Shown here: positions 2,396 through 24,600 of the stretch, one piece after another
Position numbering within the stretch: the stretch's first letter is position 1
How the letters are laid out: each line of letters starts with the position of its first letter
Source: a virus
Reading direction: 5' to 3' (one strand)
Virus record (IMG/VR): IMGVR_UViG_3300037245_003526
Location: 88,297-152,296 of that record
DNA: 64,000 bases
Position numbers and translations under genes: made by a program
The notes under the pieces: generated by a model
The model's input: the letters and a program-made list of their open reading frames with translations, nothing else
The model's database searches: none
What the model was told of the DNA's origin: nothing

Positions 2396-2398
2396 AAA

Positions 2399-3538: not shown

Positions 3539-3550
3539 TAATTTTCTCCT

Positions 3551-3841: not shown

Positions 3842-3895
3842 TTTTTCTCCTTTATATATGGGTCATCATTATATATATAATGATGACCCATAATT

Positions 3896-4639
3896 TTATT
3901 CTTCTTCGGTTAACTGACTTCTTGAATAGATATTAATATTAATATCAGAGATTGATGTACTACATAAATTACTACAAATTGCTTCACGATAGTTATACAT
4001 CTTGAAAACTATATCCCCTTCATGATCAATTATAAATGGAGTATTTATTAAACTACTTGTAGCTTGAAGTTGTCTTTCAGTAGTTATTTCACCCATAATT
4101 TTTGCAGATTGTTCCATACTCTGAGTCTGCATAGTTAAAGAAGAAAGTTCACCCTCAAATTTAACTTGCATTGAATTAACATTAAATCCCTGAGATATGA
4201 CTCTCATTCTATCTGAAATAACTTTTGAAATATCAGTAGACAATATTAAATCATCCTCATTAATAGGAAATATGCTTGCTAATTCTTCCTCGTCGATAAA
4301 CTTATTATCAATAAATTCAAGATCAGGACCTTCAAATTTTAAAGATGAGTATTGATCTGAAAATGAAAAACTTCCATCATCATTTACTGTAATCTCGACT
4401 TCTTGTTCTGTAAATATTTTCAATAGATCAAGTTTAGTTTTTATACTGATCAATGGAATATTTAAATCTTCAAGAATTGGAGTTAAATCAATTTCAAGAA
4501 CTGTAGCTGAATCATCAGTTTTTTGTCTTAATATTCCTTCTCTAATATCAGCATCGTTACATATATCTCTCAAAATTCCCAAACACCTCAACAACTCTTC
4601 ATACCTTTCACCATCTAAATTTACTTGCTGCATAACCAT
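3896..4639 (-). CDS. acidic hypothetical protein. Possibly a sliding-clamp-like replication accessory protein; tentative.
   Basis: Start moved to the internal ATG at 4639 (MVMQQVNL), which has RBS AGGAAAGGAG 5 nt upstream. The protein is acidic, ~247 aa, and sits inside the replication module. No direct motif match. Confidence 0.3.
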   Translation of the reverse strand: MVMQQVNLDGERYEELLRCLGILRDICNDADIREGILRQKTDDSATVLEIDLTPILEDLNIPLISIKTKLDLLKIFTEQEVEITVNDDGSFSFSDQYSSLKFEGPDLEFIDNKFIDEEELASIFPINEDDLILSTDISKVISDRMRVISQGFNVNSMQVKFEGELSSLTMQTQSMEQSAKIMGEITTERQLQATSSLINTPFIIDHEGDIVFKMYNYREAICSNLCSTSISDININIYSRSQLTEEE

Positions 4640-4812
4640 TTCTCCTTTCCTGTTATCCCTTGTGACCAAAGTCTTTTGGCCATTCTATAAATTGCAACTC
4701 CACCCATTTTTTCAAACTCTTTTTTTCCCACACGTTCTATTATACTTTTAAGAACTTCAGGGTGCTTATTTCTAACCAATTTAAAAATTTGCTTCGCTCT
4801 CTTACCTCTCAT
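4621..4812 (-). CDS. small basic hypothetical protein
   Basis: 63-aa Lys/Arg-rich ORF. Confidence 0.3.
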   Translation of the reverse strand: MRGKRAKQIFKLVRNKHPEVLKSIIERVGKKEFEKMGGVAIYRMAKRLWSQGITGKEKWLCSK

Positions 4813-5203
4813 TTTGATCTCCCCTATTCACTTTTTTAATAATACTTATATATACAAATTTATCATCCTTCATTTCATTAGAAGAAATAAAATCTAATGT
4901 TGTAAAACATTTTTCCATAGATCTAGTTATTTCCATAACTCTATCAGCTATATGTTTTGCACTTGCATCACTATTCAATGGAATAGAAAAAATTATTAAA
5001 ACCGAATCTTCATTTTCATAAATAAAATTAAACATGCATGTATTAACACCAAAAAATTTATATAACTTGTCAGATGCTGCGGACTTACAAAATAAACTAA
5101 AATAGTCTATATTAGTAATTGAACCATCATACTTCATTTCATTTGACTCAACTACATTTTCAAATAACTCTTTAAACTTCTGTAATACTATTTCATTACT
5201 CAT
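4802..5203 (-). CDS. hypothetical protein
   Basis: 133-aa ORF. Confidence 0.4.
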   Translation of the reverse strand: MSNEIVLQKFKELFENVVESNEMKYDGSITNIDYFSLFCKSAASDKLYKFFGVNTCMFNFIYENEDSVLIIFSIPLNSDASAKHIADRVMEITRSMEKCFTTLDFISSNEMKDDKFVYISIIKKVNRGDQNER

Positions 5204-5211
5204 GATTTCTC

Positions 5212-6201
5212 CTAAATTATATGTTTCACTATATTAAGAGGCGTATCGTTAAAATCCTTACCTGACCTGTTATAATACACCGTTAACTTATTTATAATAT
5301 GTTTATTAAAATATTTTAATTTTTCATAAAAATTTAAATCTATTCCATTGTCAGATAAAATATGTATGTCCGGTCTAAATATCTGCTCATGAAATACCAA
5401 ACTCTTTATTAAAGAAGCATATGATGTAGCTGATAAAGCAGCTGCATATAAGCTACATTTTCTTTTTATACCTAATGAATCATATATATGTTCCGTATAT
5501 ATGTCAAAAATTCCCTCAGCTAGTACCACCTCCCTTGAATATTTTTTACCTCCAATTAGTTTATAATAATCTAAAAGTTGTGACGGTTGTAGTTTTAATT
5601 TATAATATCTAAAATTAGACATTCGATCTATATTTCTAAATGTAATACTTGATTGATGTTCTGATACAAAACCAACAAAATTACTATGTAAATAATCTTT
5701 AAATCTTTCAACTTTTTCATCAAGTTGAACATCATTCATTTCAATAAACATATTAATATCATAAACCAAACCTTTAATTGATCCAGTATTAATATTTGAG
5801 AATTTTAATCTTTGCCTTACATATAAATCTTTAGTTGCCCATAATGATTTATTTAACTTTGGTAATAAAATATCTTTTGGTTTAAATACATTTCTTTTAA
5901 ATGTAAGTCTTTTCTTAGATAATTCTTTTATCTTAGCTCGATCAACATACTGTGAAGAAGTATCCTTACCAGAAATCTTTTGAATTAATTTATTTATTAT
6001 ACCGCTCTTAGCAGTACAATCAGTATGAAAACAATGAAATATTGGTGACTCTGTTGAAATCCATAAATGATAATGTTTCTTTTCAACTCCAAATTCACAC
6101 CAAGGACATCTGGTGATTATATTCTTTGGTGTTACTTTAATTGGTTCCCCTAAATTCTCCTTTAAATAATCTAAAAAAGAATCTTGATATATTCCTATCA
6201 T
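5212..6201 (-). CDS. DNA primase (zinc-binding domain plus TOPRIM)
   Basis: CHC2-type zinc finger CPWCEF ... HCFHTDC and TOPRIM-like LAEGIFD. Confidence 0.6.
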   Translation of the reverse strand: MIGIYQDSFLDYLKENLGEPIKVTPKNIITRCPWCEFGVEKKHYHLWISTESPIFHCFHTDCTAKSGIINKLIQKISGKDTSSQYVDRAKIKELSKKRLTFKRNVFKPKDILLPKLNKSLWATKDLYVRQRLKFSNINTGSIKGLVYDINMFIEMNDVQLDEKVERFKDYLHSNFVGFVSEHQSSITFRNIDRMSNFRYYKLKLQPSQLLDYYKLIGGKKYSREVVLAEGIFDIYTEHIYDSLGIKRKCSLYAAALSATSYASLIKSLVFHEQIFRPDIHILSDNGIDLNFYEKLKYFNKHIINKLTVYYNRSGKDFNDTPLNIVKHII

Positions 6202-6563
6202 TAATGTCCACTCCTATCTATATCTTTAAATTTATATTGTTCTTCTTTTGCCCTAGTGCTTATTTCTCTTTGTACTATAAGACCTCTATCTAAAATATAA
6301 TCATTTGTTGTAAAAAAATGTCCACATGAATAACACCTTTGATATCTCATATTACAGTGATCTTTTCCATCTTCACTTTGTAATATATCTCCACCACAAT
6401 CAGGACAACAATAATACTTATTTATAAAACTCTTAAGTTCTAATCCATTTCTAACTTTATCACACAACATTGTACAACATGGTAAAACTATACAACCTTT
6501 ACATGTAAAAATAGGAGTATATAATTTTACTTCTTTAAATATTTTTTTTAAAAAATCAATCAT
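6201..6563 (-). CDS. Cys-rich double zinc-ribbon protein, member of a paralogous family
   Basis: Motif CKGCIVLPCCTMLCDKV, then CPDCGG ... CYSCGH. Confidence 0.5.
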   Translation of the reverse strand: MIDFLKKIFKEVKLYTPIFTCKGCIVLPCCTMLCDKVRNGLELKSFINKYYCCPDCGGDILQSEDGKDHCNMRYQRCYSCGHFFTTNDYILDRGLIVQREISTRAKEEQYKFKDIDRSGH

Positions 6564-7171
6564 TAAAACCTTTTCCTGTAAGTTATTATAAATCCTCCAG
6601 CTTTAGCAGGATTAATAAAAATATCTGATGTTACATTTTTAGTTTTTTTAGTAACCCATGACTGTGTTTTATAAAAACGATAAGCTTGATAACATGTAAT
6701 TGCTAATACAGAACCCGCAAAATAATCTGCTGTTTTTCTATCAAAATGATGTTCAATACCTTGAATATCCCCTGAATATCCATCATCACTTCTTTCTCTA
6801 TTTAAACTATGTATGAACCAATAATCAATAGAATACCTTAAAGGTATTATTATGTTTATTAACATCATACCTCTTACAAAATCATCATTATTATTTATCT
6901 TATCTGTTTGAAGAATAACTTCTGATGATATAAGTTGTGATAAAAGTCCTGCTGATAAAATAAAACCTACATCACTTTTATTATTTGATTCGAATTCTAT
7001 TGTACCTGAATTCCATTTAGTATTATTATCTGTAGCTCTAGCAGCTATTACATGACCCGATTCGTGTAATATATAAGAAGATAATGATCCTCCCCAAAGT
7101 TTTATAACTCCAGCATATGAATAACTACTGAATGTAAATATAAATAAAACTATGTAAAATAACTTTTTCAT
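6563..7171 (-). CDS. membrane protein with an HExxH zinc-metalloprotease motif
   Basis: N-terminal signal peptide or TM segment, then ILHESGHVIAA, with 3-4 hydrophobic segments. Confidence 0.4.
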   Translation of the reverse strand: MKKLFYIVLFIFTFSSYSYAGVIKLWGGSLSSYILHESGHVIAARATDNNTKWNSGTIEFESNNKSDVGFILSAGLLSQLISSEVILQTDKINNNDDFVRGMMLINIIIPLRYSIDYWFIHSLNRERSDDGYSGDIQGIEHHFDRKTADYFAGSVLAITCYQAYRFYKTQSWVTKKTKNVTSDIFINPAKAGGFIITYRKRF

Positions 7172-7419
7172 ATTAAATCCATCCTCTCGTACCTATCATA
7201 ATCAAATTGTTCCTCAAAATGATGTTTACAAATTTCACATTCAAATTGATATCCATTATTTACTATAATCTTGCTTATAGCTTTTAAATGGCCATTACAA
7301 TCAGGACATAATTGAGAAATCATACTGTTTTTAATTTCGTCTTTATCATATGTTATCTTATCACATAGTTCTGAACAACATGCTAGAACTATACAATCTC
7401 TACATGGGTATTCAGACAT
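7168..7419 (-). CDS. Cys-rich double zinc-ribbon protein (family member)
   Basis: CRDCIVLACCSELCDKI ... CPDCNG ... CEICKH. Confidence 0.5.
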   Translation of the reverse strand: MSEYPCRDCIVLACCSELCDKITYDKDEIKNSMISQLCPDCNGHLKAISKIIVNNGYQFECEICKHHFEEQFDYDRYERMDLI

Positions 7420-7421
7420 AA

Positions 7422-7952
7422 TTAGACCTCAAATATTCTAAAACATAAATTACTGTTTCTTAATAAAAATTCTGAAGATTTATCATAAAATTCAAATTTA
7501 GTTACTACTATTTCTTTTACTCCAGCATTTATTATTTCAACCATACATGGTGTACATGGTATTCCACAATCCATATACATAGTTGTGTTTCTTGTACATA
7601 CACCAGTACGAGCAGCATTAATAAGACAATTTCTTTCAGCATGTCCAGCTACACACCACTCAAGACCTTCACCACTTTTAAATTTCATAAGTTGTCTGGG
7701 ACATTTTTCAAGATATCTTTCTGCCTCATAATTACATAAACCTGATCGTTTTATTAATTCCTTACAAAATTCATGATCTATTTGAGCTCTTGTATTACAA
7801 TGTGGGATACCTCGTGGAGGTCCATTATATCCTGTGGCAACTATAGAATTATCAATAACCAAAATAGCACCAATTTGTCTTGACATACATTTAGTATTCT
7901 TTCCAACTTCTTTACATATACCTAAAAAATACTTATCCCATCTAGTACTCAT
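7422..7952 (-). CDS. dCMP deaminase
   Basis: WDKYFL ... GAILV ... GYNG ... HAE ... PCTPC zinc-binding motifs of the cytidine/dCMP deaminase fold. Confidence 0.7.
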   Translation of the reverse strand: MSTRWDKYFLGICKEVGKNTKCMSRQIGAILVIDNSIVATGYNGPPRGIPHCNTRAQIDHEFCKELIKRSGLCNYEAERYLEKCPRQLMKFKSGEGLEWCVAGHAERNCLINAARTGVCTRNTTMYMDCGIPCTPCMVEIINAGVKEIVVTKFEFYDKSSEFLLRNSNLCFRIFEV

Positions 7953-7967
7953 TTTTTATTCTCCTTT

Positions 7968-8204
7968 TTAATAATATCTTCCGCCATAAGAATTGAATCT
8001 ATGATTACATCCTTCGCACATAAAAATTGAACCATAACTTGTAGTATCAATATACATTCTCCATTTAGTTCCTCCGCAATCAGGACATATACTTTTATCA
8101 ATTGATTTTTTAATTGCTTCAGTTTTCTTTTTAGATACTTTACCACAAAAGGTTGTACAGCATGGTAAAACTACACAACCATCACATGGATAAGAACCTG
8201 CCAT
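7968..8204 (-). CDS. Cys-rich double zinc-ribbon protein (family member)
   Basis: Start set at the internal ATG (MAGSYPCDGCVVLPCCTTFCGKV), which lies 1 nt after the upstream TAA. CPDCGG ... CEGCNH. Confidence 0.5.
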   Translation of the reverse strand: MAGSYPCDGCVVLPCCTTFCGKVSKKKTEAIKKSIDKSICPDCGGTKWRMYIDTTSYGSIFMCEGCNHRFNSYGGRYY

Positions 8205-8205
8205 T

Positions 8206-8607
8206 TTAAGCCACCATATTTTTAGTAGAAATTGAATGATGATTTGATACTGGAAGATGAACCTGATAATTAGTAACACATGTACTATCATTTACACTAC
8301 AACTATAATTACTTGGCATACCTTCAAATTCAAGTGGTATATCTCTATAATAAGCATTATTGAACTTCTTAAAATCATGATTACATATTTTACAAGACCA
8401 ATTTTCATTTTTAAGTAATATCTTTTTTAAAATTTTTTTATTTCTATTTTTACCCCTAATATTACTACCACAATCTGGACATTCTCTTCTTTTTAAAGCT
8501 CTTTTTATATCAATAGATCTCATATTAGATACTTCATCACACATCTCTGTACAACGTGGTAAAACTATACATCCTTTACATGGGTGTGAATGGTTTACCT
8601 TTTTCAT
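8206..8607 (-). CDS. Cys-rich double zinc-ribbon protein (family member, extended C-terminus)
   Basis: PCKGCIVLPRCTEMCDEV ... CPDCGS ... CKICNH. Confidence 0.5.
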   Translation of the reverse strand: MKKVNHSHPCKGCIVLPRCTEMCDEVSNMRSIDIKRALKRRECPDCGSNIRGKNRNKKILKKILLKNENWSCKICNHDFKKFNNAYYRDIPLEFEGMPSNYSCSVNDSTCVTNYQVHLPVSNHHSISTKNMVA

Positions 8608-8840
8608 GTTCTATATCTCCTTTTACACTTATAACATCTATATTCATTACGACCTTCAATAGGTCTATGTGCAAGTGTCATATCTCTTACTTCCCATTTA
8701 TAAAGTTTATCTTTACAAAATGGACATTTTTCAGTATCAATTATTTGTCTTTTAATATCATTACATATTTTTGTACAACATGCTGATACTATACAATTAT
8801 TACATGTTAATTTATTTGTCATCATAAATCTCGTTTGCAC
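8604..8840 (-). CDS. Cys-rich double zinc-ribbon protein (family member)
   Basis: CNNCIVSACCTKICNDI ... CPFCKD ... CYKCKR. The start could instead be the internal ATG at 8825. Confidence 0.45.
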   Translation of the reverse strand: MQTRFMMTNKLTCNNCIVSACCTKICNDIKRQIIDTEKCPFCKDKLYKWEVRDMTLAHRPIEGRNEYRCYKCKRRYRT

Positions 8841-9039
8841 AATTTGGGCACCTTAAAACATTATATTTAGTTGTTCCTTCACTATTAAACATTACTAAAT
8901 AACGCATAAAATAATTTTCTCCATCACAGAAAGGACATATTGGCGATCCAATTGTGCTTCGTATTCTTTTTCTAAGTTCTTCACATACTTTAGTACAACA
9001 CATTTCTACTATACAACCTTTACATATTTCTGAGTTCAT
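8812..9039 (-). CDS. Cys-rich double zinc-ribbon protein (family member)
   Basis: CKGCIVEMCCTKVCEEL ... CPFCDG ... CPNCAN. Confidence 0.5.
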   Translation of the reverse strand: MNSEICKGCIVEMCCTKVCEELRKRIRSTIGSPICPFCDGENYFMRYLVMFNSEGTTKYNVLRCPNCANEIYDDK

Positions 9040-9374
9040 TATTTATTCAATGGTAATTTAACTACTTGTTTAGAATATCTAATTTTTTCATCATGATTAG
9101 TAGCTCTACTCCATTCACTAAATGGACCAGACTTACAACATGAGTTTTCTTCATTAGGCCACTTAATCGGACAATATTTACTACAATCTTTTAATGAACC
9201 ATATGTATCTACTACCCAATCACATAAAGGACATTGATTAGTACACATTATAATATCACCAAAATTAATATTCCATCTATGCCATTCAGCTTTTTCTTTA
9301 TCAGGATTTTCAGATAACCATTCCCATAATTCTCTAAACAATTTTATACGTTGAGTCTTACTAATTTTTTTCAT
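9039..9374 (-). CDS. Cys-rich hypothetical protein (distinct pattern)
   Basis: CPLCDW ... CSKYCPIKW ... CCK. It lies immediately downstream of the clamp loader gene. Confidence 0.4.
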   Translation of the reverse strand: MKKISKTQRIKLFRELWEWLSENPDKEKAEWHRWNINFGDIIMCTNQCPLCDWVVDTYGSLKDCSKYCPIKWPNEENSCCKSGPFSEWSRATNHDEKIRYSKQVVKLPLNK

Positions 9375-10363
9375 TATTTTCCCCCGTTAATATTTTCAAA
9401 ATATAAACCAACAGTCTGAATGATTTCCATTACCATAGAAGTGAAATGCATCTGAGGAACTAAACAACTTTGAAATGTATTAGAATATTTATTAACTACT
9501 ATTTTAGCAGGTACTGGTATTTGAGGGCTCTTAAATAAATCATAAAAAATCTTTCTATATTCCAAATCATGTTTATCTAATGTATTATTTATTACAGAAA
9601 TTTCTTTATTTATTTTATGTCTTTGTTTATTCTTTATATGATTTGTTATTTCTATAACTGCTGCTATTAATGTTTTTTCAGATGTTAATGCTATATCCCT
9701 ATTTACTTTAACAGTTCCACTACCTGAGCTTCTTTGTAATGTACTTACTATTTTTCTTACATCAGGATATAATTGATCTATAATAAATTGTAAATCTTTT
9801 TCTTTATACTTAATTTTTTCTGATTTAAGAATATTATTACAATAGTTAATTATAAATGCTACAGGTATTCTCTTAAATTCATACTCATTGAATCTTGATC
9901 TAACTGCTTCAGGAATCTTTGAAATATAATTACATGTTATAATAAATCGTCCATATTTAATTTGATATTTTTCAATAACTCCTCTTAAAGATGAAAATGC
10001 TGCTTCAGTTAAATGATCACCCTCATCTATAAAAACTATTTTATATTTATCACCTCCTGCTGGGGGAATTTTCAGAAAAGGTTCAATAACATTCTGAACA
10101 AAATTAATACCCCTTGCCTCTTGAGCTGAACCATTTAATTTTAATAAATTTGCATTAGGAATTTGTAACACTCCTGACGTTGAACATATTATTCTTGCAA
10201 GAGTAGTTTTACCTCCGCCTGGATCTCCATTAAGAAGTATATTAGGTATTTCTTTTGTCTTAAAGAATTTATTAATTTCTTCCTGATATACTTCCGGTAA
10301 AACTATATCCTTTATATCTGCTGGTCTAAATTTTTCAATCCATAGTGTTTGCTCTATATTCAC
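9374..10363 (-). CDS. clamp loader ATPase (RFC small subunit / T4 gp44-like)
   Basis: WIEKFRP N-terminal box, Walker A GDPGGGKTT, Walker B IVFIDEGD, and SRF sensor. Confidence 0.65.
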   Translation of the reverse strand: MNIEQTLWIEKFRPADIKDIVLPEVYQEEINKFFKTKEIPNILLNGDPGGGKTTLARIICSTSGVLQIPNANLLKLNGSAQEARGINFVQNVIEPFLKIPPAGGDKYKIVFIDEGDHLTEAAFSSLRGVIEKYQIKYGRFIITCNYISKIPEAVRSRFNEYEFKRIPVAFIINYCNNILKSEKIKYKEKDLQFIIDQLYPDVRKIVSTLQRSSGSGTVKVNRDIALTSEKTLIAAVIEITNHIKNKQRHKINKEISVINNTLDKHDLEYRKIFYDLFKSPQIPVPAKIVVNKYSNTFQSCLVPQMHFTSMVMEIIQTVGLYFENINGGK

Positions 10364-10375
10364 TTTTATAATCTC

Positions 10376-10828
10376 CTATTCAAAACTACCATATGTTCGA
10401 TAACTAATTCGTAGCTCCATTAATATTTTTCCTAACATATTTCTACCTGTCATTAAACATTCATCTCTACCACATAAACAGTTTCCAAAAATATTATCAT
10501 GATGCTTATTACCCTCAATTAAAAATTCTGGATGTGTTTCAAGTAATTTATTTCTCATTGGTGAATAAGAAAATTTTTCTTTTAAAATTTCTTTCATAAT
10601 ATAAAATTTCACTCCTTCCCAATCATCTCTAAGAGTAACTTTTTGTCCTAAATTTTTAGCATCTCTTGGAGAAACAGCTTCAGAAATCTGTATTTTTTCA
10701 TTAATATCTCTACATTTTTCTGCTTGATAAGCATGTTCAGAAGTAGGATATGTAAAATAATTATAAGTAACAGGTGATCTATAAAAATTACTTAAGAAAA
10801 AATATTTTCCTCTGAAATTAGATATCAT
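10376..10828 (-). CDS. NADAR (YbiA-like) domain protein
   Basis: FLSNFY ... EHAYQAEK ... KNLG ... W ... GRNMLGKILMELR. This is the characteristic NADAR signature. Confidence 0.5.
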   Translation of the reverse strand: MISNFRGKYFFLSNFYRSPVTYNYFTYPTSEHAYQAEKCRDINEKIQISEAVSPRDAKNLGQKVTLRDDWEGVKFYIMKEILKEKFSYSPMRNKLLETHPEFLIEGNKHHDNIFGNCLCGRDECLMTGRNMLGKILMELRISYRTYGSFE

Positions 10829-11154
10829 TACTCCTCCTTATAGTCATCTATTATATTAACCAATTTAATAATTATAAATTGAAATAGCTTTTTTGTATCT
10901 TTAATTTCTTTATTTTCTACTTGAGAAATAATTATATCTCTCAAAGGTTTGAATAAAGATTCAAAATCTATTCCACCTTCTTTAGTATTATACATAGGTG
11001 CTATATTTGATTGAGGTTGTATTGGTGTTTGTATTTTGGGACCATTATGAACTTGATCTTCTGGAAGAGGTTCTTTTATAGGACATCTCCCATCTGCTAA
11101 TATTGGATGATAAAAACTACATTTATCACATTTCGGACTACTTATTTCTGACAT
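10828..11154 (-). CDS. hypothetical protein
   Basis: 108-aa ORF; ATGA overlap with the upstream gene. Confidence 0.4.
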   Translation of the reverse strand: MSEISSPKCDKCSFYHPILADGRCPIKEPLPEDQVHNGPKIQTPIQPQSNIAPMYNTKEGGIDFESLFKPLRDIIISQVENKEIKDTKKLFQFIIIKLVNIIDDYKEE

Positions 11155-11212
11155 TTAAATCTCCTTTTTATTATATATTTGTTATGTTTAAATGAAAAAA
11201 TGACTTGTTGTT

Positions 11213-12514
11213 TTAAAAGAAATCATACACTACAAATAATTTTTCTTTTGCTCTAGTAGCAGCAGTATATAACCATCTTTTATAATCATCATCATTTTGA
11301 TAACTATTTCTCTGTACAAATAGAATAACCCTATTCCATTCACTACCCTGCGATTTATGAACAGTTGTACAATATCCATAATCAAAAAAGTCCACCTGTG
11401 AACATTTACTACGTTTAATAGCAGATTTATATTCATCATGAGTATGATCAAATATATCATTATAACTTTCTTGTCCGAAACAATCTGTATTTACTAAACA
11501 GTCATAATAATTTTCTTCGTCGTCATCCATTTGAACTGTCATTGTTGATAATTCTTTTTCGAAAGGTAATGACCATACAACATTACCTAATTGACCATTC
11601 ATAACTCCCATTTCATGGTTGTTTCGTAGGCATATAACCCTTTCACCAGGATATATATCTTCGACCTCAAAACCAATGTTTTTACGAATATGTGTATTTA
11701 ATTTTACCCTACTTTTATTAAAACCACATAAACAAATTACATCTTTGTCAAATGTAATACTATTAAATACATCACGACATTGTTGATTTTGCCAGTTCAT
11801 TCCAAAGACTTCTTTATTATCTAAAGTAGGCAACGGAACGTGAATTTCTCCATATTTTCTTATGTCTTGAGATAGTTGAATAATTGGATTTGATTCTGCT
11901 TGTCTGTGAATTTTTTTAAGGGTTAGTATTGGTTTTTCCATCAGGTTGAATTTAGATCCAATGGGTGGGAGTTGACCATGATCACCTACTGCTATAATAG
12001 GTACATCATAAGAAAGTAAATCTCTCCATATGTCATGGTTTACCATAGATGCTTCATCAATTATTATTAAATCAACATACTGAAGATCATCTACTTTTTC
12101 CCAATGACTTATTACTTTCTTTCCTTGACTATTCATCCTAGTTACAGGTCTATACATTAAACTATGAATAGTACCTATTAAATTACTTTCAGGTTGTGCT
12201 CTAACTACTCCTTTTTTTGATTTACTATATGTATATTTTACTGATTCAGTTTCTATAACTCCTTTAAGTTTTTTCTTAAGCACTGAAGCAGCTTTTCCTG
12301 TGTAAGCGCAAAATGCTACTTTAAATTTATTATTTTTATTCTTTGGTTTATATCCTCTTTTCTTTTCAATGTAATCAGCTAAAAAAGAAATGAGAGTTGT
12401 TTTCCCAGTACCTGCATAACCACCAATAGTAATATAAGGATCATAACCATTATTATACCATTTTACTACTTTATCACATACACTTTTCTGTTCTTCACTT
12501 AATTCAATAGTCAT
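11213..12514 (-). CDS. SF1 DNA helicase (Dda/RecD-like)
   Basis: Walker A GYAGTGKTT, Walker B IIIDEASMV, and C-terminal TVHKSQGSEW motif. Confidence 0.65.
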   Translation of the reverse strand: MTIELSEEQKSVCDKVVKWYNNGYDPYITIGGYAGTGKTTLISFLADYIEKKRGYKPKNKNNKFKVAFCAYTGKAASVLKKKLKGVIETESVKYTYSKSKKGVVRAQPESNLIGTIHSLMYRPVTRMNSQGKKVISHWEKVDDLQYVDLIIIDEASMVNHDIWRDLLSYDVPIIAVGDHGQLPPIGSKFNLMEKPILTLKKIHRQAESNPIIQLSQDIRKYGEIHVPLPTLDNKEVFGMNWQNQQCRDVFNSITFDKDVICLCGFNKSRVKLNTHIRKNIGFEVEDIYPGERVICLRNNHEMGVMNGQLGNVVWSLPFEKELSTMTVQMDDDEENYYDCLVNTDCFGQESYNDIFDHTHDEYKSAIKRSKCSQVDFFDYGYCTTVHKSQGSEWNRVILFVQRNSYQNDDDYKRWLYTAATRAKEKLFVVYDFF

Positions 12515-12538
12515 CTATTCACCTTTCTTTTTTTTTGT

Positions 12539-12700
12539 TTAAATTATCCACATAATCATTTTACCTATTCCTATTGTCCATGGAACTAAACCAAATAAAA
12601 CTACACATAAAATAAATACAACTATACCAGTTCTTATTACCCAATCAGGTATATTATCATCAGAAAAATTATCATCCTCTAAAACTTTTTCACTACTCAT
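12539..12700 (-). CDS. small membrane protein (53 aa)
   Basis: Not in the ORF track. Manual translation: MSSEKVLEDDNFSDDNIPDWVIRTGIVVFILCVVLFGLVPWTIGIGKMIMWII. RBS GAGGAGG lies 5 nt upstream. Confidence 0.35.
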   Translation of the reverse strand: MSSEKVLEDDNFSDDNIPDWVIRTGIVVFILCVVLFGLVPWTIGIGKMIMWII

Positions 12701-12826
12701 TACAAACCTCCTCATTTTTAATTTGTTCCCATAATCAATTTTATATACTCATTTAAAATAAGTTATTTTTTTGAAATTTAGTAACATATTAATGAGAAAA
12801 TAGAGTAAATTTTTGAAAGGAGACTA

Positions 12827-13744
12827 ATGAATATAATTACAGAAAAAAGTATAAATAAAAATGTGTTTCCAGTAAAGAAAACTGGACCAAGAGAAAAATT
12901 TAAAAAGGGTGAATGTGTTTTCAGAGCTGAAGAAGGTTCTGAATGGGATCATAATTGTTATAAACTTATAGATTTTTTATCTACAAAATTAATGGAAGAA
13001 ATATTATGTGAACACGGAATATGGGAAATTGAAGATAGTTTTATTCAAGATGATTTCTTTCTATTAGATTGTGATGTGTATAATACTGATACTATGGAAA
13101 GAATTCGTAATAGTGATGTGTATAATAAAGTTATAACAGTTCATGGTTATGAATTATTAGATAGTCCACAGTTTAAAAATTGGGAAAGTAAAAGAATAAA
13201 ATCTATAATCGAAAAAGCTTCAAAATGTAAATTTAAAGGTAAACACAATTGCTTATCAAAAACAGAATCAAAAAAATATACTCTTAAAAAATCCCAAATT
13301 AATACTTTGAATTTTAATGCACCTTCTTGGAATTTATTTGATTATGAAGTTGATAATGGAACTAAAGGTAAGGATGGTAAATTTTATAATCTAAAATATA
13401 AATTTAAATTTGGTCCACAGTTTGATGGACAAATTCATAGTGTATTTTTTCTACATAATATTTATACAAAAGCATATGATGTACTTCCTGAAAATTTTTA
13501 TTCATTAACTCCGATTACTAGTAATTTTTATAGATTATATCTACTTGGTCTATATAGTAAAAATAAGAAAAAAGATATCAATGTACATATAGATTTTATT
13601 GAAGTTGCTAGATTATTAGGTTTAACAACTAAAAGTGTATCTCCTCTTAAACAAACTATAAAAAGAATCTTGAATGAACTTAAAAGTAAAGAATTTATTA
13701 AAGGATTTAAAAATAAAAAATCAGTATTCATAATATCAAAATAA
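12827..13744 (+). CDS. putative DNA-binding / replication-initiator-like protein
   Basis: First plus-strand gene after the strand switch. The C-terminus (IDFIEVARLLGLTTKSVSPLKQTIKRIL) looks like a winged helix. It is immediately followed by iterons. Confidence 0.3.
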   Translation: MNIITEKSINKNVFPVKKTGPREKFKKGECVFRAEEGSEWDHNCYKLIDFLSTKLMEEILCEHGIWEIEDSFIQDDFFLLDCDVYNTDTMERIRNSDVYNKVITVHGYELLDSPQFKNWESKRIKSIIEKASKCKFKGKHNCLSKTESKKYTLKKSQINTLNFNAPSWNLFDYEVDNGTKGKDGKFYNLKYKFKFGPQFDGQIHSVFFLHNIYTKAYDVLPENFYSLTPITSNFYRLYLLGLYSKNKKKDINVHIDFIEVARLLGLTTKSVSPLKQTIKRILNELKSKEFIKGFKNKKSVFIISK

Positions 13745-14250
13745 AAGGTGAGACTGAGGGTATATAAAGGTACACATGAGGGTATGAAAAGGTACACATG
13801 AGGGTATATAAAGGTACACATGAGGGTATATAAAGGTACACATTAAGGTGATTTTTTCCTGTTATTTAATAATAATATTAACCTGTTGAAGCTCCTAAAG
13901 CTTTTTTAAACTAAAAAAGCTTATAAAGAGTTCTAAAACTTATTTTAAATAATTAAATATATATTTTTATGTTATATTGAATTAGTATTTTAAATGGGTA
14001 TAATATAGAGATTATAATTAGGATTTTTGGGATTACTTTAATTAAAACCTTAAGTATATAAAAGAGATTCAAATGATATTATCTAGGTAATGCATAAATT
14101 CAAAATATCTAGATTATAAAATTTGATTTTGAGGTAGTATACACTAACCCCTTCCTCCACGTCTGGAACGTGTCAGGGGGTAAGAACTTATTGAATTGAA
14201 TAGGAACAAATAATAAATATATGAATAGAGTATTGACGAAAGGAGCAACT
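13745..14250. promoter_or_regulatory. candidate replication origin and divergent promoter region (iterons plus AT-rich tract)
   Basis: About 500 bp non-coding. It has the iterons, a weak hairpin AAAGCTTTTTT/AAAAAAGCTT at 13897-13922, and a >300-bp tract of very high AT content. It sits at the strand switch. Confidence 0.35.
13756..13843. repeat. 4 tandem 22-bp direct repeats (iterons); unit GAGGGTATATAAAGGTACACAT
   Basis: Read directly. Copies at 13756, 13778 (2 mismatches), 13800 and 13822. Flanked by AAGGTGA at both ends. Confidence 0.8.
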
Positions 14251-14251
14251 A

Positions 14252-16252
14252 ATGAGTTTCAACAATGAAGATGTAATGTGGGTTAACCAGGGATTAATGT
14301 CATACAAAGATAAACGATATCATTCTGATGGTTATTTTGAAATGAATGTAACTTCAACTACTAAAGATTATATTAACTTCAGTCAACCGAGATTAAGTTT
14401 AGTAATAGATAATGAAGGAAAGAGAAGAATAGCAAGTTTAAGTCTTACAAATGTTTTAGAATTATTAAACTCTTTCAACGAGGTTTCAAAAAATATTAAA
14501 GAAGTATATCAAAATCCTAATCAAGGTGACATAACCAAAAGATTCAACAAGAATAAAGATCTTATATTCGAGTATAGAGTTGAACAAAATACAAAAGAAC
14601 CTTTAGTAGTAATAAAGATTTCATTTGGATATTCAGATGAAGGTAAAGTGATAGTTCCATATAGTTTAGAATATATGGTAATTGGAAAATTACTAAGATC
14701 ATTTTATGAAAATTATAGTAATTGGTGTGTGAATTTACCTATGAGATATCTTACAGGTCAACAGCTATTAGAATCAAAATTACAAACAACTTTAATAAAG
14801 ACATTACCCTCGCAAATAATCCCGGTAGAAACAACACTTGAAGTACGACCAGATTATTCCGCTACTGGATTGCGCGAGATCCCACCACCTGAGAATGCTG
14901 CACCAGAAAAAACTACTGAAGTCCAACTCGAAGTATCAATGGACGAATTTGATTCATTTGTAAAAACTGAAGAACCAAAAGTAGTAATTCCTGAATTGGA
15001 ATCTACAAAAGTTGATACTGATGAAAAACCTAAAACCCAAGAATTTAAAAGTAATTTTATTAACAAAATTTTGAAAGGTGATATTAAAGAATATGAAACT
15101 TTAATGTCAGCATCTATATCAACAGACAATCCACTTGAAGCAATACTTAAAACAATTGATCCAGATTTTAGTTCAAACAATAAAATGATTCTTTTACCTT
15201 CATTACCAGATAATGATCTTAAGTCAGCATTATATATTTCGAACGTATTTTTCAAAACACATTTTCATAGTTTAGTTAATAATGGTGATTGTCTTCCTAT
15301 AAGTGTTCCATTTGTTAAATATAAACCTGTTCAATTTTTTGATGAAAATAAAGAATTAGCATATGACATATGTATGATAAATTGTTATCTTAAATCATAT
15401 AGGAGTAGACGAGAAAATACAAATCCTGATAATTATACAAATGGAGCACTAACTTATTTTATTTCTCGTTGTTATCTTGATATTGTAACTTATAGTTTTT
15501 TGGAAGGTAATAAAGATATAATTAAAAACTGTATAGTATCAAGATTTAATTATTTTAAAGAAAAAGGATTTTTTAATTATTTTGATGAATTATTAAAAGA
15601 TAATAATTGTACTGAAATATCAGGTTATGAAATTGAGGAAATGTTAGAATTTATTTTAAGTGCAATACCTAACGAACCTAACATTTCAGAAGTACATATA
15701 ACTACTTATGAAAATGGTTCATTTAAAGCTCCACCAAAAAATAAGTTTACTATAGAACAAATATTAAATGATGTCGTTAATACTGAAGTTAAATTTAAGT
15801 ACGGAAAGAAGATTGAAGATCTTACTGAAAATCCAGATATAGTTGAATTATTTAAAAAATCAAAAAAGAAGAAATCAAAACCTAAAGAAGAAAAAACAAT
15901 GTCTTTAGATAAAGAAAAAGTTAATCAAGAAACAAATCTTTTACGATGGATTAAATTTAAAATTAATGAAGTTCCAGAAAAAACCCAAAAGAAATTTTCT
16001 AAATACATCGAAAAATTAGAAGATAATGAATATGATTTCTCAAATAATTTATTTCAAGAAGATGAATTTGGAGATAATATAGTTAAGGGTTTATATATAT
16101 GGAATTCAAGTCCTGAAAAGAAAATGAAATATACAGATTTTGCAGTTCAAATTGAAGAGTGTATTTCTAAAGATTTGATTCTTTCAAAGTTAAAAGAAAC
16201 TGAAAATTTAAAAGATACTACAGGAAGCGAATATGGAAATTGGGTAGAATAG
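14252..16252 (+). CDS. hypothetical protein (666 aa)
   Basis: RBS AAAGGAG. Contains an internal Pro/Glu-rich linker. No motif recognised. Confidence 0.45.
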   Translation: MSFNNEDVMWVNQGLMSYKDKRYHSDGYFEMNVTSTTKDYINFSQPRLSLVIDNEGKRRIASLSLTNVLELLNSFNEVSKNIKEVYQNPNQGDITKRFNKNKDLIFEYRVEQNTKEPLVVIKISFGYSDEGKVIVPYSLEYMVIGKLLRSFYENYSNWCVNLPMRYLTGQQLLESKLQTTLIKTLPSQIIPVETTLEVRPDYSATGLREIPPPENAAPEKTTEVQLEVSMDEFDSFVKTEEPKVVIPELESTKVDTDEKPKTQEFKSNFINKILKGDIKEYETLMSASISTDNPLEAILKTIDPDFSSNNKMILLPSLPDNDLKSALYISNVFFKTHFHSLVNNGDCLPISVPFVKYKPVQFFDENKELAYDICMINCYLKSYRSRRENTNPDNYTNGALTYFISRCYLDIVTYSFLEGNKDIIKNCIVSRFNYFKEKGFFNYFDELLKDNNCTEISGYEIEEMLEFILSAIPNEPNISEVHITTYENGSFKAPPKNKFTIEQILNDVVNTEVKFKYGKKIEDLTENPDIVELFKKSKKKKSKPKEEKTMSLDKEKVNQETNLLRWIKFKINEVPEKTQKKFSKYIEKLEDNEYDFSNNLFQEDEFGDNIVKGLYIWNSSPEKKMKYTDFAVQIEECISKDLILSKLKETENLKDTTGSEYGNWVE

Positions 16253-18253: not shown

Positions 18254-18652
18254 ATGTTGAATAAATATTTACATATGCTATATGAACAATCTTCTGAAGA
18301 TCTAATAACTCAAAAAATAATAGATTTTTTTATAAAAAATCCATATCCAAAAGATGATATAGTACATGACCTTGCTGAAGAATTAGGTATAGATCCTGAT
18401 GATTTTGAGTCTAAAATATATGCAATTCTTAGTTCTTTTTTATCATTTGGAAGATTTAATGAAGAAGGAATGAAAGAAAGTGATTTTGATTCTGAACAAA
18501 TACGAATGGGAATAGAAGTGGAATATGAACATACAAAAAGTCCTATTATTTCAAAAAGAATTGCATTAGATCATCTTACAGAGTTCTCTGATTATTACAC
18601 CCGTTTGAAAAAAATGGAAGATGAAGCTGAAGAGGAACTTGGAGGAGATTAA
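18254..18652 (+). CDS. acidic hypothetical protein
   Basis: Start at the ATG with RBS AGGAG 8 nt upstream. Its stop overlaps the giant gene's start (TAATG). Confidence 0.4.
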   Translation: MLNKYLHMLYEQSSEDLITQKIIDFFIKNPYPKDDIVHDLAEELGIDPDDFESKIYAILSSFLSFGRFNEEGMKESDFDSEQIRMGIEVEYEHTKSPIISKRIALDHLTEFSDYYTRLKKMEDEAEEELGGD

Positions 18653-21600
18653 TGGCAAGAGAAACCGAGGGTTTTCATTATACATTTATACATACTGTGT
18701 TTGGATCATTTATAAATGATACGTTGGAATTTTTTGCTGACTATTTATATCCTAGATTTGAGCATCAAGTAGTAGGAACCTATGATAAAGCAGTTGAATA
18801 TATAACAAAAAAAGATCAATATACAAGAGAAGAAGATAAACCAAATCTTCCCGCTATAATTTTAAATCCTGATGGTGAATTTAATTTAGATGAAGCAAAT
18901 ACTGGTGCTAGAAGTATATATCGTTTTCCAAATCTTATGTCTAGATTTTCTAGTATGATATATGATCCTATCTATCAAGATAATAATAATAAAGTAACTG
19001 TTGGTTTCACAAGATTAAAGGGAACTATAGAACTTTTATTATTACTCAATTCCTTTTACGAATATTTTGATGTAAAGATTTTCTTGATACAAATGTTTGG
19101 AGGTGAAGGAAAATACATCCATCCAGTTGAATTTGATTCTTTTATAATAATTCCTAATGATTTATATACATTCACATATGCAAATGATGTAACTGGTCTT
19201 ACATATAATTTAGATTGGACAGGTGCTGGAATTGAAAGTAAATTAGTAAGAACCACAAATAGAACCGAAATAGTTGTTCCAGGTAAAATTCGACCAACTT
19301 ATGCAATAAGGGGTATGAGTGATGCATCTACTAGACATGGTGGGATAGACTCTTTATCAGACTATAGATTAACAGTTCAAGTTGAATATGAAATTGAACT
19401 TCCTTCTTATATGATATTAGAAACTGATTATATTGTAGAACATGTTAACTTAGATTTACGATACGGTTCAAGTTATTCAGAATATTCAGATTATAATAAT
19501 GAACTCCCACAAGGAAGATATTTAACAAGAACAAGTTGGGATTCAGGATTAAGTGAAACAGAACATTCTGAATTTGACTCTGATGACTTACCTGATGAAG
19601 CAGAAATAGTACAAAAAATAGAATTAGAATCACGTACAAGATATTTTTATGAACTAACTAATGCAGATATTGATTCTACCTCTGATATATTTATAATTAT
19701 ATTTGAAGAAATTCTACAAGAAGAAAGATATTATCTTATTGTTAATAGTAAATATGGAGCAATGACATATGATCTCCACTACGATATACATAATAGTCAA
19801 ACAAGAATTCAGATAAAACGAGAAACAACCTCTGCATTAGAAGCTGGTGATATTATTGAATTATATGTTTATAAATTAATCCAATATCTTGCTGAGCTTG
19901 GAGCTACAGCTATTATAGGAACTGATCTGACTGCTAATGTAGAAATAACTATTCTACTTACTTCTACATCTATCATTCAATCTGATATCTATTCTGATTT
20001 AACTATTGGAGTTGTTGAAATTTCTTCAGGTACAAGTTCAATAGTTTCAGATGTTTCTATATCAGTTTTAACTATTGGAGTTATTGAAGTTTTATCAAGT
20101 ACAAGTTTAATAGAAACCTCTTGTAATGGATTATTACAATTTGGTCTTCCTGAATCTCTTTCAGGTACAGCAAATATAACATCATATGTTGATAATACAG
20201 CTATAATTTATTACAAATATTTAGATTCTTCACCTGCCATTCAATCTAATACAACATCTTCTTTACAACTAGGTCACGTAGAATCATTATCAAGCTCAGT
20301 AAATATAACAACCTCTGTTGATCATACAGGTTTAATTTATATAATAGTATCTTTGAGTGCTTCACCTATCATTCAATCTAATACAACATCTTCTTTACTA
20401 CTTGGACATGAAGAATCATTATCAGGTACATCAAATATAACATCCAATACAACATCTTCTTTACTACTTGGTCATGAAGAATCATTATCAGGTACATCAA
20501 ATATAACATCATATGTTGATAATACAGCTATAATTTATTTCAAATATTTAGATGCTTCATGTGTTATAGAAACCTCTTGTGATGGTTTATTAATTAACTA
20601 TATTGAACGACAAACAGATAAGGGATTTAATAATGTTACTGTAGAATCTGCTAGTTATATAACTCAGATAAGCAACACAGATCCAGCAGTTGCAACATTT
20701 GTTGGTGGTGCCGATATTGTAGTAGATGGAGATATGGAATCTGATGATGCTGCTTGGTTTAGTCAAGGAACGCCTACTGTGCAAGAACGATCAAGTGAGC
20801 AAGCGCATGCTGGAACTTATTCGAGAAAGTTCACTGTAGATGCTGTGAGTGAGGGTTTGAGGCAAAACTTTACAGGAATAAGTTGGAATGGCGTTCCACA
20901 AATGGCAACTTTCTGGATTTATGGAGATGGTGTAAATGAGTTGAATATAATTGTTGCTGGCTCATCTGCATTAGGTCAAGTAGACTCAACAGTTTATCCT
21001 GCATCATGGACAAAGGTATTTTTATATTTTGACGGTGATTCAGATACAACACCATATTTATTAATCAGATCCTCGGGGTCTTCTGGAACTTGGTATATTG
21101 ACGACGTTTCTATACAAGAAGTTGCAGATGTTGACGAAGGAGATTTTATTGTTTTAGATGAATTTGGTGATCACTTGACTCCGACTCTTTGGGATGCAGA
21201 TGCCTCAGTATTCACGAGCGGTGTTTATGCATGGCAAGGTTACAATGGTAACACAGTTGCGAATGTCGGAAACGAGCTTGAAGTTACTTATGTTGACGAT
21301 CAAAGAGGCGCATATTCTTCATTTAGAGATTCTTATGATTTATCGAGAAATCTTGTAGTAGGTGAGTGGTACATATTCCAAATAGATGCTTATTATATAG
21401 GTGGTGCCAGTGGAGTGAAAGTTAGGTTGCAGAATTCAGGCAGTTTTGATTCTGATCCATTGACAGGTTCCAAAACTACTTATACATGGGTTTTTAAAGC
21501 TTTAACTATTTTTGGATGTGCCACTACACAAATTTCAATGTCAGCGGGTAATAAAGTATATATTGATAATCTTTCTTTAGAACCTATTATGGCATTGGAT

Positions 21601-24600
21601 AATAATGTCTACGAGATATATGATATTGTTGACAACACTGCAAAACTTAGAAATCATGTTGGAGATCTTGATCTATCTGATTCAACTTCTGCTACTGGTG
21701 CAGGAACATGTAAAGTTATCACTATAGATGATTGGGTAGTAGGTGACGGCGTTGGTTCATATATTGATATTGATAGAGATAGTCCTGAATTAGTTATAGA
21801 CGGAGATATGACATCTGCTATTAATTGGCAAGTAGGTGCAGGTTGGTCGATAGGTGGAGGTGTTGCGACAAGTGATGGATCACCCGGATATTTAAACCAA
21901 AATAGTATAATAACAACAGGTAAAGTTTATAAGGTTGAGTTTGAGGTTACAGCTTATACATCAGGTACTATAATTGGATATATAAATTCCCCGTGGGATT
22001 GGATTGAAACAGCTACAGGAACATATTCATACATTTTAGAGGCTACTAGTGAAAGTCTACGCTTTTATTCTGCTGCTTTTATTGGTTCAATTGATAATGT
22101 CTCAATTAAAGAAGTTTCAGATATATCAGTACAGGTTACAGGTTCTCAAAGTGCAGAAACTAGTATAATACAAAATGTAAATGAGATTGTTGATGAAGAA
22201 TTAAGAACTTCATTCTCAGTAATTGATAGAACAGCTGGAGGTGTAACTCCTACAGCAGGTGGTACTGACGGAACCGAGGTAATAACAAATGGTGATCATT
22301 CTGAAAATTTAATAACAGTAGGAACTGATGATTCAGGATTAAAAATAAGTACAGGATTTATGGGTAGAGTTGATGATCTAACAATTGAAGAAGTAGAAAG
22401 AGGTTCTAAATTATTAGGTACATCAAATATTACAACTATTGATTCTTCTGCATTTATGACTAATTTCATATATTTAGATGCTTCATGTGTTATAGAAACC
22501 TCTTGTGATGGTTTATTTATTAATTATGTTGAACGTCAAATAAATGGTGATTTTTCAGAAATATCTTTAGGATCTAATATTGATATATCTCAAATTACTA
22601 ACGCTGATCCTGCAGTTGCAACATTTACTCTTGGTACAGATTTATGGGACGCCGATGCCGCAGTATTTACAAGCGGGACTTATAGTTGGCTTCCGTATAC
22701 AAATACAATTGCTAATGTTGGAAATGAATTAGAAATTACTTTTGTAGATCATTCCAGAGGTGCTTATTGTTATTTAAGAGATGCACATGATTTAATTTCT
22801 GATTTAACTGTCGGTCAATGGTATAAGTTATCAGTTGATGCATATTATACAGGTGGTGCAAGCGGGGTGCAATTGCGTCTTGCGGTAGAGACACCCATAC
22901 TCTCAGATTTGTTGACCGGAATTAAAACAACTTATACTTTTTATTTTGTGGCTACGTCAGTAAATGGACATGATCTTAGCTTTTTAAATATGGGTGCCTC
23001 TAATGTAGTTTATATAGATAATTTAAAAATTGAACCTTTTGCTGGAATAGTAGAGGAAGGAGATTTTATAAATCTTGGTGGTTTCGGGGATGTTCTTAGT
23101 CCAGATCTTGCATCTGGTTGGGATTTTACAAGTGGATGGTCTACATCAGTAGAGTGCACTATTGATGATTCTGATTCTTTTACTACGACAGGTTCAAGTC
23201 GATCTGTATATATTACGACTATAATGGAAGTTGGAAAATGGTATAAAGTAACAATTGTTGGGTCAACTTCAAGTAGCGATATTCGTTGTATAGCAGGGTC
23301 TTCAATTCCAGGAAGTAACGAACCTGGATTTGGAGTACATTATTTAAAATGTACTGGGATTGCCAGATTTTATATACAAAATACTACTGCCGGAATCACA
23401 GATATAACAACTCTTGAAATTGAAGAAGTAAAGTCAATAGATGATTATATCTACGAGGTTGGAGCATTTACGGATAATACTGCTCCTTTAAGGAATCATG
23501 TAGGTGATTTAGATTTATCAGATCTTGCTGGAGTTACAGGAGCGGGATACGGTCAAGTAGCCACGATAGATGATTGGACAGTAGATGATGGAGTTGGTCC
23601 TCATTTTAGTTATACCTCTATTATTTACAACGAAGTTGTAAATGGAGATATGGAACTTGATACAAGTTGGGTGAGTGTTTTGACACCTACTGTTCAAGAA
23701 AGAAGCAGCGAACAGGCACATAGTTTAACCTATAGTAGAAAAATCACCGTTGATGCAGAGTATGAAGGAGTTCAACAAACAATACCTGGTTCTGCTGATT
23801 ATGGGTTATATAAAATTACTGCATGGATATATGGGGATGCCACAAATAAACTTGCGGCTTATCTTGATACAGAAAGTGTTCTCGTATATTATTCGGATGT
23901 AGAGGGAGATGTCTATCCAGCTTCTTGGACAAAAATAACTTGGTATTCTATACTTGATGAAGGAACAAATCCAATTGTAGCATTCGTGTCAGGTCAGGGA
24001 GATACAACAGGAACTTGGTATATAGATGATGTCAGTATATTGAAAGTTTATTCCTCAGTACAGGTTACAGGTTCCCAAAGTGCAGAAACCAGTTTATTAC
24101 AAGATGTAAATGAGATTATTGATGCAGATTTTAGAATTTTATGGACAGTAGAAGACCGTACAGCAGGAGGTACAACTCCTACAGCAGGTGGTACTGATGG
24201 AACTACCGAGATAATAATAAACGGTGATCATTCTTCTGAAATTTTAACTGCAGTAGGAACCGACGATTCAGGATTAAAAATAAGTACAGGATTTATGGGT
24301 AGAATTGATGATATAACAATTGAAGAACTAAAACAATATACTGAATTTTCAGGTACATCAAATATAACAACTTCTGATTCTACAGCAGTTATATTTGGAT
24401 TCACTGCAGTTCCACGTCAAACAAATGAAGGATTTGGAGAGATAACACTTGGTAGTGATATAAATATATCACAAATTACTAATACTAATCCAGCATTAGT
24501 GACTTTTGCTGATATTGGTGCAGACGATGTAACAAATGGAGATAATGAAGCTGCACTATTTACCTATAATAATTCAGCAAGAGGGGGAACGACTCAATCG

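Follow-up and report, generated by a model that had tools for sequence, protein, structure and literature searches.

The stretch of DNA analysed here, referred to as the window, comprises 64,000 nucleotides (64 kb) of the IMG/VR virus record IMGVR_UViG_3300037245_003526 (positions 88,297 to 152,296), has an AT content of 70.7% and is part of a 244.5-kb metagenomic contig. According to the map of its open reading frames (ORFs), the genes lying at 644-12715 are leftward, and from 12827 on nearly all of them are rightward. The first rightward gene encodes a protein of 305 amino acids (aa) with the predicted fold of a replication initiator, and its stop codon is followed by a tandem array of direct repeats. 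Beyond the array, a non-coding spacer of 408 bp contains, one after the other, a conserved stretch, a palindrome, the least stable duplex of the window, a promoter match and a GC-rich patch, and leads to the gene of a 666-aa protein (Table 1). Taken together, these elements probably constitute a replication origin of the initiator-iteron type.

The array consists of four 22-bp units, as already noticed in a preliminary description of this DNA made from the sequence. The unit GAGGGTATATAAAGGTACACAT is perfect at 13756-13777, 13800-13821 and 13822-13843, and the second unit (13778-13799, GAGGGTATGAAAAGGTACACAT) differs from it by two mismatches. Tandem Repeats Finder (TRF) assigns to the array a period of 22, 4.0 copies and a score of 164, and a search with the repeat pattern, allowing up to three mismatches, returned exactly these four sites in the 64 kb and none in 100 shuffles. 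The array begins 12 nt past the stop codon of the 305-aa ORF and is thus wholly outside the coding sequence; a degenerate partial repeat extends over the stop codon itself, and another partial copy, TAAGGTGAT, is found in the 3' flank (13844-13852). As read from the sequence, each unit holds two GGTAYAYA sub-sites at a spacing of 10 and 12 bp. The repeat also contains TGAGGG, which matches a TGAGnG motif attributed to R6K-type iterons; the match was not used as evidence. The gene is therefore adjoined by helically phased tandem direct repeats in the 17-22-bp range of iterons (PMC4980987). No second array was found in the window, nor in 17-21 kb of two contigs carrying related genes (L001 and L008).

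The 305-aa protein gave nothing usable in searches of Pfam, PHROGs and NCBIfam, the best match being HTH_Crp_2 (E 0.057), and only chance-level matches in sequence and profile searches of the PDB, with a Fur winged helix as the best of the latter (E 0.034). Moreover, neither blastn nor tblastn found a match to the gene or the protein among 50,697 phage records. Close homologues amount to only five in a set of 5.8 billion proteins, and the AlphaFold model based on these five was unreliable (predicted local distance difference test, pLDDT, of 36). Searching 1.84 billion cluster representatives with a profile yielded 58 relatives of similar length with 18-32% identity, and an alignment of 60 sequences (A3) was used for a reliable model, having a pLDDT of 92.4 and a predicted template modelling score (pTM) of 0.91. 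The winged-helix-like end of the gene product, pointed out beforehand, is recovered in this model as a predicted C-terminal winged helix (helices 229-238, 257-263 and 271-287; strands 252-256, 293-297 and 300-304), and the predicted structure contains two winged-helix domains in tandem. Its best fold match is the R6K pi initiator bound to its iteron (score 11.9, 201 of 252 residues aligned), followed by domains 2-3 of RctB (8.9), the WH1 domain of pPS10 RepA (8.3), RepE (8.1) and the WH1 domain of the MSBI1.176 Rep protein (7.1); fold matches in BFVD were weak. On the basis of these matches, the 305-aa protein is predicted to have the WH1-WH2 architecture of iteron-binding initiators, unrecognised by any sequence model. 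The comparison with Rep and initiator families that had been proposed for this protein thus succeeded at the level of the predicted fold, not at that of sequence families.

Further evidence comes from the relatives of the gene, since each of those whose downstream DNA was fetched carries its own same-strand repeats at the gene 3' end. In L002, L003 and L004 (74-89% protein identity) the repeats are variants of those of the window; L001, a contig of 167.8 kb (58% protein identity), has about six 21-bp units with the core GGCGAATAAAAC, and L008, an IMG/VR contig of 127.9 kb (~30%), has four perfect 21-bp units, CCTATAACCTAGTTAAACTAT, starting 2 nt past the stop codon. Three to four 21-bp units of other sequences are present in L005, L006 and L007 (20-31% protein identity; three units of 21 bp in both L006 and L007). 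Scanning metagenomes with the alignment of one subfamily (A4) provided 62 more loci, while IMG/VR scans yielded no loci with alignments A1 and A4 and one locus, L008, with A5, and a genome scan with A1 was empty. A 10-mer repeated at least three times, with no more than one mismatch, between -60 and +150 of the stop codon was found in 26 of 48 unique loci, with a spacing of mostly 20-23 bp. In the A4 subfamily, where the repeats begin inside the last 26-40 nt of the gene, the core CT[GC]ATTTG reaches 9.27 per kb in the stop region, compared with 0.057 per kb-strand elsewhere, and is always in direct orientation there, typically at -26, -4, +18 and +50. The sequence of the repeats thus varies with the protein, and their position, orientation and phasing are kept, which is the pattern expected of a DNA-binding protein and its cognate sites. 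Judging from these sequences, gene and repeats form one module across the family, and it is highly likely that the 305-aa protein binds the repeats. The preservation of phased arrays of different sequence at the same position, in relatives down to 20-30% identity, also lends independent support to an initiator-iteron reading.

Beyond the array, alignment A2 displays many invariant columns between the repeats and the palindrome, even against L001 with its differing repeats. The palindrome, formerly described as weak, has arms that are perfect over 11 bp, a single-stranded DNA fold z-score of -2.8 and a position 154 nt past the stop codon, equivalent to that of a hairpin found throughout the family. 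Of all 56-nt folds in the 600 nt downstream of the gene, the most stable one starts 43-196 nt past the stop codon in 50 of 58 loci; a hairpin or palindrome is usually found some 110-195 nt past the stop codon. The A4 subfamily has a long hairpin in which the arms differ among lineages yet remain complementary (for instance GAGAGAAATGGACAATGC/GCATGTCCATTCTCTC and GGAGAAAGATATGGGACTGCC/GGCTGTCCCATCTTTCC), with fold z-scores of -7.3 and -9.1, and in L008 an unrelated palindrome of the same form, TTAATCATTAT-TAT-ATAATGATTAA, with 11-bp arms and a 3-nt loop, lies 125 nt past the stop codon. The conservation of the hairpin was established from folds of the single sequences; MAFFT followed by RNAalifold gave no hairpin consensus, the arms being aligned out of register. 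Position is conserved across the family, and the sequence is unrelated to the ssiA and ssiB hairpins of the RSF1010 oriV; by analogy with these, the hairpin may be suggested to act as a single-strand priming or loading signal (PMC8567376).

As a separate observation, the left arm of the A4 hairpin contains GGAGAAA(A)ATG, in which an ATG follows a Shine-Dalgarno-like sequence, and mini-ORFs some 12-18 codons long start there (L016 7188-7235, L024 7196-7249, L037 2541-2588 and about 25 further A4 loci). It could represent a start of translation sequestered in the stem, or simply result from the sequence of the stem.

The least stable 100 bp of the 64 kb are those at 13921-14020 (88% AT) and the least stable 200 bp those at 13922-14121, so that the low-stability stretch begins 78 bp past the array. 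The preliminary description had spoken of some 400 bp of very AT-rich non-coding DNA here: the length is correct, but the enrichment is moderate (81% AT over 13856-14140) and the spacer includes a GC-rich patch. AT-rich tandem repeats of 10-12 bp occur at the matching place only in L001. The number of sigma-70-like matches in the region is at chance level, and the sequence of the one within the low-stability stretch is conserved in L002 and L004. The GC-rich patch lies 70 nt upstream of the 666-aa gene and recurs at the same place in L001, L004 and L008, with an inner stem of 5-6 bp that covaries (CACGT/ACGTG, CTACGT/ACGTAG, GGCGC/GCGCC). Its fold z-scores are weak (-1.06 in the window, -3.0 and +0.4), and with the first of these values the patch was rejected as a significant hairpin; it may be an element in the 5' untranslated region of the gene that follows, or else belong to the origin. 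No Rfam family was found in 12500-14400.

Table 1. Elements of the putative origin region and its neighbouring genes (window coordinates).
Element	Position	Strand	Basis or remark
gp44-like clamp loader gene	9374-10363	leftward	
Gene of a Dda-like superfamily 1B (SF1B) helicase, next to and divergent from the initiator gene	11213-12514	-	PHROG 325 Dda-like helicase, E 1.6e-97; Pfam AAA_30 + UvrD_C_2
Divergent intergenic region (strand switch, presumed promoter of the initiator gene)	12716-12826		ORF map
Gene of the initiator-like protein, 305 aa, predicted two-winged-helix (WH1-WH2) Rep fold	12827-13744	+	
Degenerate partial repeat AAAAGGTGAGACT, over the stop codon	13743-13755	+	In register with the array at 22-bp spacing (family D1)
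Four tandem 22-bp direct repeats (candidate iterons)	13756-13843	+	TRF and pattern search
Conserved spacer from repeats to palindrome, GATTTTTTCC; TTATTTAATAATAATATTAACC	13844-13897		Alignment A2
Perfect palindrome AAGCTTTTTTA-AAC-TAAAAAAGCTT, 11-bp arms	13898-13922		Positional equivalent of the family-wide hairpin
Candidate DNA unwinding element, the duplex of lowest stability in the window	13921-14121		Nearest-neighbour scan
Sigma-70-like promoter match TTGAAT-16-TATAAT, towards the next gene	13977-14004	+	10 of 12 matches
GC-rich patch with small internal hairpin CACGT-CTGGA-ACGTG (14158-14172)	14147-14181	+	60% GC in a 29% GC genome
666-aa gene, conserved and syntenic, 3' of the origin-like region	14252-16252	+	

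With regard to the genomic context, the leftward block encodes T4-type replication functions, namely the Dda-like helicase, the gp44-like clamp loader, a RuvC-like resolvase and a dCMP deaminase, in agreement with the earlier remark that the replication genes lie leftwards. The repeats had also been placed exactly at the point where transcription diverges; this does not hold, since the strand switch is upstream of the 305-aa ORF and the repeats are about 0.9 kb inside the rightward arm. In the jumbo-phage clade (the window, L001, L003 and L008) the initiator-like gene is always back to back with a Dda-like helicase gene, that of L008 being 47% identical, and homologues of the 666-aa gene are found 3' of the module in L001, L004 and, at 30% identity, L008. 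The 666-aa protein itself had no match in Pfam, PHROG, NCBIfam or a PDB sequence search. In the remaining subfamilies the gene adjoins that of a D5 primase-helicase (L038), a UvrD helicase (L047), a tyrosine integrase (L034) or a terminase (L067), and some loci are in contigs of metagenome-assembled genomes (MAGs) of Bacteroidales, Syntrophaceae and Firmicutes (L075, for example, is an 81-kb Syntrophaceae MAG contig). The presence of replicative or mobile neighbours across subfamilies indicates that the family is a general initiator of phages and integrative elements rather than a transcription factor serving a single gene downstream. In the part of the window that was examined, no primase was identified. 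The leftward replication block also includes the gene of a NADAR-domain protein (10376-10828, minus strand; Pfam E 2e-24).

The reading preferred for this locus, with a probability of about 0.7, is that of an initiator-iteron origin of the R6K/pPS10/F class in a phage with its own replisome. The 305-aa protein would belong, with R6K pi, F RepE and pPS10 RepA, to the two-winged-helix initiators of the Rep class, and the four repeats past its stop codon would be its iterons. Rep monomers may occupy the phased repeats next to one another (22 bp correspond to two helical turns), and their loading would distort the DNA and help to melt the adjacent low-stability AT-rich stretch. At the melted DNA the phage's own T4-type machinery could enter, with recruitment of helicase and primase, the neighbouring Dda-type helicase being the candidate entry factor; the palindrome, once single-stranded, may serve as a hairpin signal for priming or loading. 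Fold, architecture and contexts are what suggests that replication would start at this locus. Furthermore, iteron origins are described as having two to seven iterons, each 17-22 bp long (those of R6K and pPS10 have 22 bp), and an adjacent DNA unwinding element (PMC4980987), and the agreement of the window with this architecture counts in favour of the reading. The likeness to an initiator-iteron-unwinding element arrangement had been proposed with lambda, P1 and plasmid origins as models: it is supported for the plasmid class, the nearest being R6K, pPS10, F and P1, and it is not close for lambda, where the iterons are inside the O gene.

Several considerations weigh against this reading. In P1 and F, arrays downstream of the rep gene are copy-control loci and not the origin. 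The assignment of the protein to the Rep class depends on a predicted structure, and Rep family models (e.g. Pfam Rep_3) of Pfam, NCBIfam and PHROGs match neither the protein nor any of the 60 family members. The AT-rich stretch is the least stable by a small margin (-0.969 vs -0.983 kcal/mol per step) in a genome that is AT-rich as a whole. Cumulative GC skew, a check proposed at the outset, does have its minimum at 12-13 kb; nevertheless this is not diagnostic and gives no independent support, because skew follows transcription here (the coding-strand skew is +0.19 for three minus-strand genes of the right arm and +0.21 for plus-strand genes) and so cannot locate an origin. DnaA boxes with up to one mismatch are not enriched in the window (30 matches, 28 expected), and none falls in 13745-14251; many origins of this class, though not all, have such boxes. 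No half-iteron operator was found in the promoter, the best words shared by array and promoter being no longer than those of controls in seven loci; GAGTATATAAAA at 12739-12750 (minus strand) resembles the left half of the repeat, and such matches are no commoner than in control regions. Finally, phages of the T4 type replicate largely by R-loop and recombination-dependent initiation, and an initiator-driven origin is not required (PMC3016281).

A single perfect DnaA-box consensus, TTATCCACA, is present on the plus strand at 12544-12552, flanked by the Dda-like helicase gene and by a 58-aa ORF, at a distance of 280 bp upstream of the initiator gene. Chance alone would give about one such box per window, and it was not seen in L001.

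Among the alternatives, the one that survives best, although rather unlikely, accepts that the protein binds the repeats and regards the array as a control or maintenance site, i.e., a copy-number or "handcuffing" locus such as P1 incA and F incC, with which it shares the position downstream of the gene, or as part of the low-copy plasmid-prophage replicon of a phage whose lytic start is elsewhere. Such a role would suit the integrative elements in which the A4 subfamily occurs (an integrase in L034; L075) and a phage that possesses a complete T4-type replication gene set; in T4 itself, such genes can start replication with no dedicated initiator (PMC3016281). Nevertheless, given the failure to find a second array, it would imply a control locus without a visible origin array; moreover, the array is followed, as at origins, by a conserved spacer, a palindrome and low-stability DNA, and no partition or lysogeny genes were seen beside it with Pfam and PHROG.

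Distinctly less probable is that the 305-aa protein is a winged-helix transcription regulator, and that the repeats are operators for the 666-aa gene or terminate or attenuate the regulator's own transcript. The array does lie between two co-directional genes, whose order is conserved in the jumbo-phage clade, with the sigma-70-like match and the conserved GC-rich patch upstream of the second one, and Rep-class proteins also repress as dimers (PMC4980987). On the other hand, the general role attributed above to the family speaks against a regulator of one gene: the 666-aa gene is not conserved outside the jumbo-phage clade, nor is any downstream gene conserved across subfamilies. No T-run follows the hairpins and palindromes, and hence they do not look like intrinsic terminators.

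The array might also be a partition site of the centromere type or a packaging (pac) recognition site, to which a site-specific DNA-binding protein would bind; parC and tubC centromeres, like some recognition sites of terminases, typically consist of tandem 11-22-bp repeats that small DNA-binding proteins bind. This is very improbable, since Pfam and PHROG revealed no ParA, ParM, TubZ or terminase domain in the neighbouring genes, the fold matches are initiators and not ParR, TubR, ParB or small terminase, and the family adjoins helicase and primase genes. Lastly, a recent functionless tandem duplication, which would explain the identity of three of the four copies, is effectively refuted: arrays of different sequence recur at the same position and orientation, with ~21-22-bp phasing, beside proteins only 20-60% identical, and a conservation of this kind with sequence changing along with the protein excludes a chance duplication.

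If the initiator-iteron reading is extended to the whole family, the module can be tentatively imagined as a self-contained origin cassette independent of the host DnaA, common to jumbo phages with T4-type replisomes and to integrative mobile elements, and composed of Rep, stop-codon iterons and the conserved hairpin. In such a cassette, whose existence is possible but doubtful, melting of the origin would be the task of Rep, and the hairpin would act as a single-strand signal at which the helicase (Dda-type, D5 or UvrD) and primase of the element itself load or prime.

Other features of the window are distant from this region. A full-length transfer-messenger RNA gene is found at 62029-62403 on the plus strand (Rfam RF00023, 132.6 bits; tag peptide ADNLAFAAADDYATAALAA by ARAGORN), and six tRNA genes, two of them for tRNA-Asn, lie at 56176-58841; the contig is otherwise phage. 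A 2546-aa ORF (18652-26292, plus strand), with no informative family match, has internal tandem repeats of 132 bp and 66 bp at 20167-20510, with copies 97% identical. A 15-bp unit, TCCACAGGTTCATCA, is repeated 7.1 times at 95% identity at 46520-46625, within the minus-strand ORF 46387-47232, a member of a small cluster of opposite-strand genes in the rightward arm.

As for the meaning of these findings, the class of mechanism is well known, and what is new is a sequence family of known fold unseen by sequence-based annotation. This family, comprising 58 clusters at 50% identity and 69 further metagenome or genome loci, has no name in Pfam, NCBIfam or PHROG, and in large uncultivated phages origins and initiators are mostly unannotated. 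The recognition of a Rep protein and its cognate iterons offers a testable origin for a 244-kb phage, as well as a means of annotating mobile-element replicons that form a widespread family, and the conserved hairpin that follows the iterons is a new and specific element. The layout is somewhat unusual in that the iterons lie at the stop codon or extend over it and have a conserved hairpin after them. The finding is of use to annotation and to the study of jumbo-phage replication; mechanistically, it would not be surprising unless the hairpin and the connection with Dda prove functional.

Compared with known systems, the closest likeness is to R6K (pi and the gamma origin), pPS10 (RepA) and F (RepE), whose initiators have the WH1-WH2 architecture also predicted for the window protein. 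In contrast to these plasmids, neither Rep_3 nor any other Rep model detects a similarity to the sequence of the window protein, the array is immediately 3' of the gene and not upstream, neither a half-iteron promoter operator nor a DnaA-box cluster was found, a conserved palindrome or hairpin lies beyond the array, and the replicon is a 244-kb phage with replisome genes. The coupling of an initiator gene to its own repeated binding sites is shared with the SaPI (Staphylococcus aureus pathogenicity island) rep-ori, with lambda O/ori-lambda and with RepA of the PLE (elements resembling phage-inducible chromosomal islands), from which the window differs in having its array wholly outside the coding sequence. 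The SaPI Rep is a helicase and lambda O is a different protein. PLE RepA, a RepA_N/DnaD-like protein, requires, together with its iterons, a phage SF1B helicase (PMC7145576).

The oriV of the IncQ plasmid RSF1010 resembles the window in the succession of iterons and AT-rich DNA with a conserved hairpin-forming inverted repeat nearby, and, it seems, in belonging to an element that brings its own helicase and need not depend on the host DnaA, DnaB and DnaC (PMC8567376). RSF1010 uses RepC iterons, the ssiA and ssiB hairpins, the helicase RepA and the primase RepB'. The window differs in having one palindrome instead of two 40-nt ssi sites on opposite strands, in lacking an identified RepB'-type primase, and in its neighbouring helicase, which is of the SF1B (Dda-like) type and not a hexameric RepA.

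Finally, the oriE of T4 has evenly spaced 12-nt "iterons" and the RepEA/RepEB proteins, lies near a point of transcription divergence and is the origin most affected by loss of Dda; its repeats are unexplained, and no repeat-binding initiator has been established (PMC3016281). The repeats of the window are of 22 bp and not 12, and its protein had no tblastn match in the phage records mentioned above, which should include T4. Nevertheless, both systems have T4-type replication genes (Dda, clamp loader) and direct repeats near a strand switch, and in the jumbo phages the Dda-like gene is the conserved neighbour. A predicted initiator fold, candidate iterons and a Dda-type helicase gene thus appear to come together at one locus, to which the oriE literature adds interest: an initiator-driven origin linked to a Dda-type helicase was hinted at by the genetics of oriE and never resolved. 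If the origin-cassette reading were true, the locus would represent a computationally defined candidate initiator-origin pair in uncultivated jumbo phages and a model for the role of the unexplained T4 oriE iterons.

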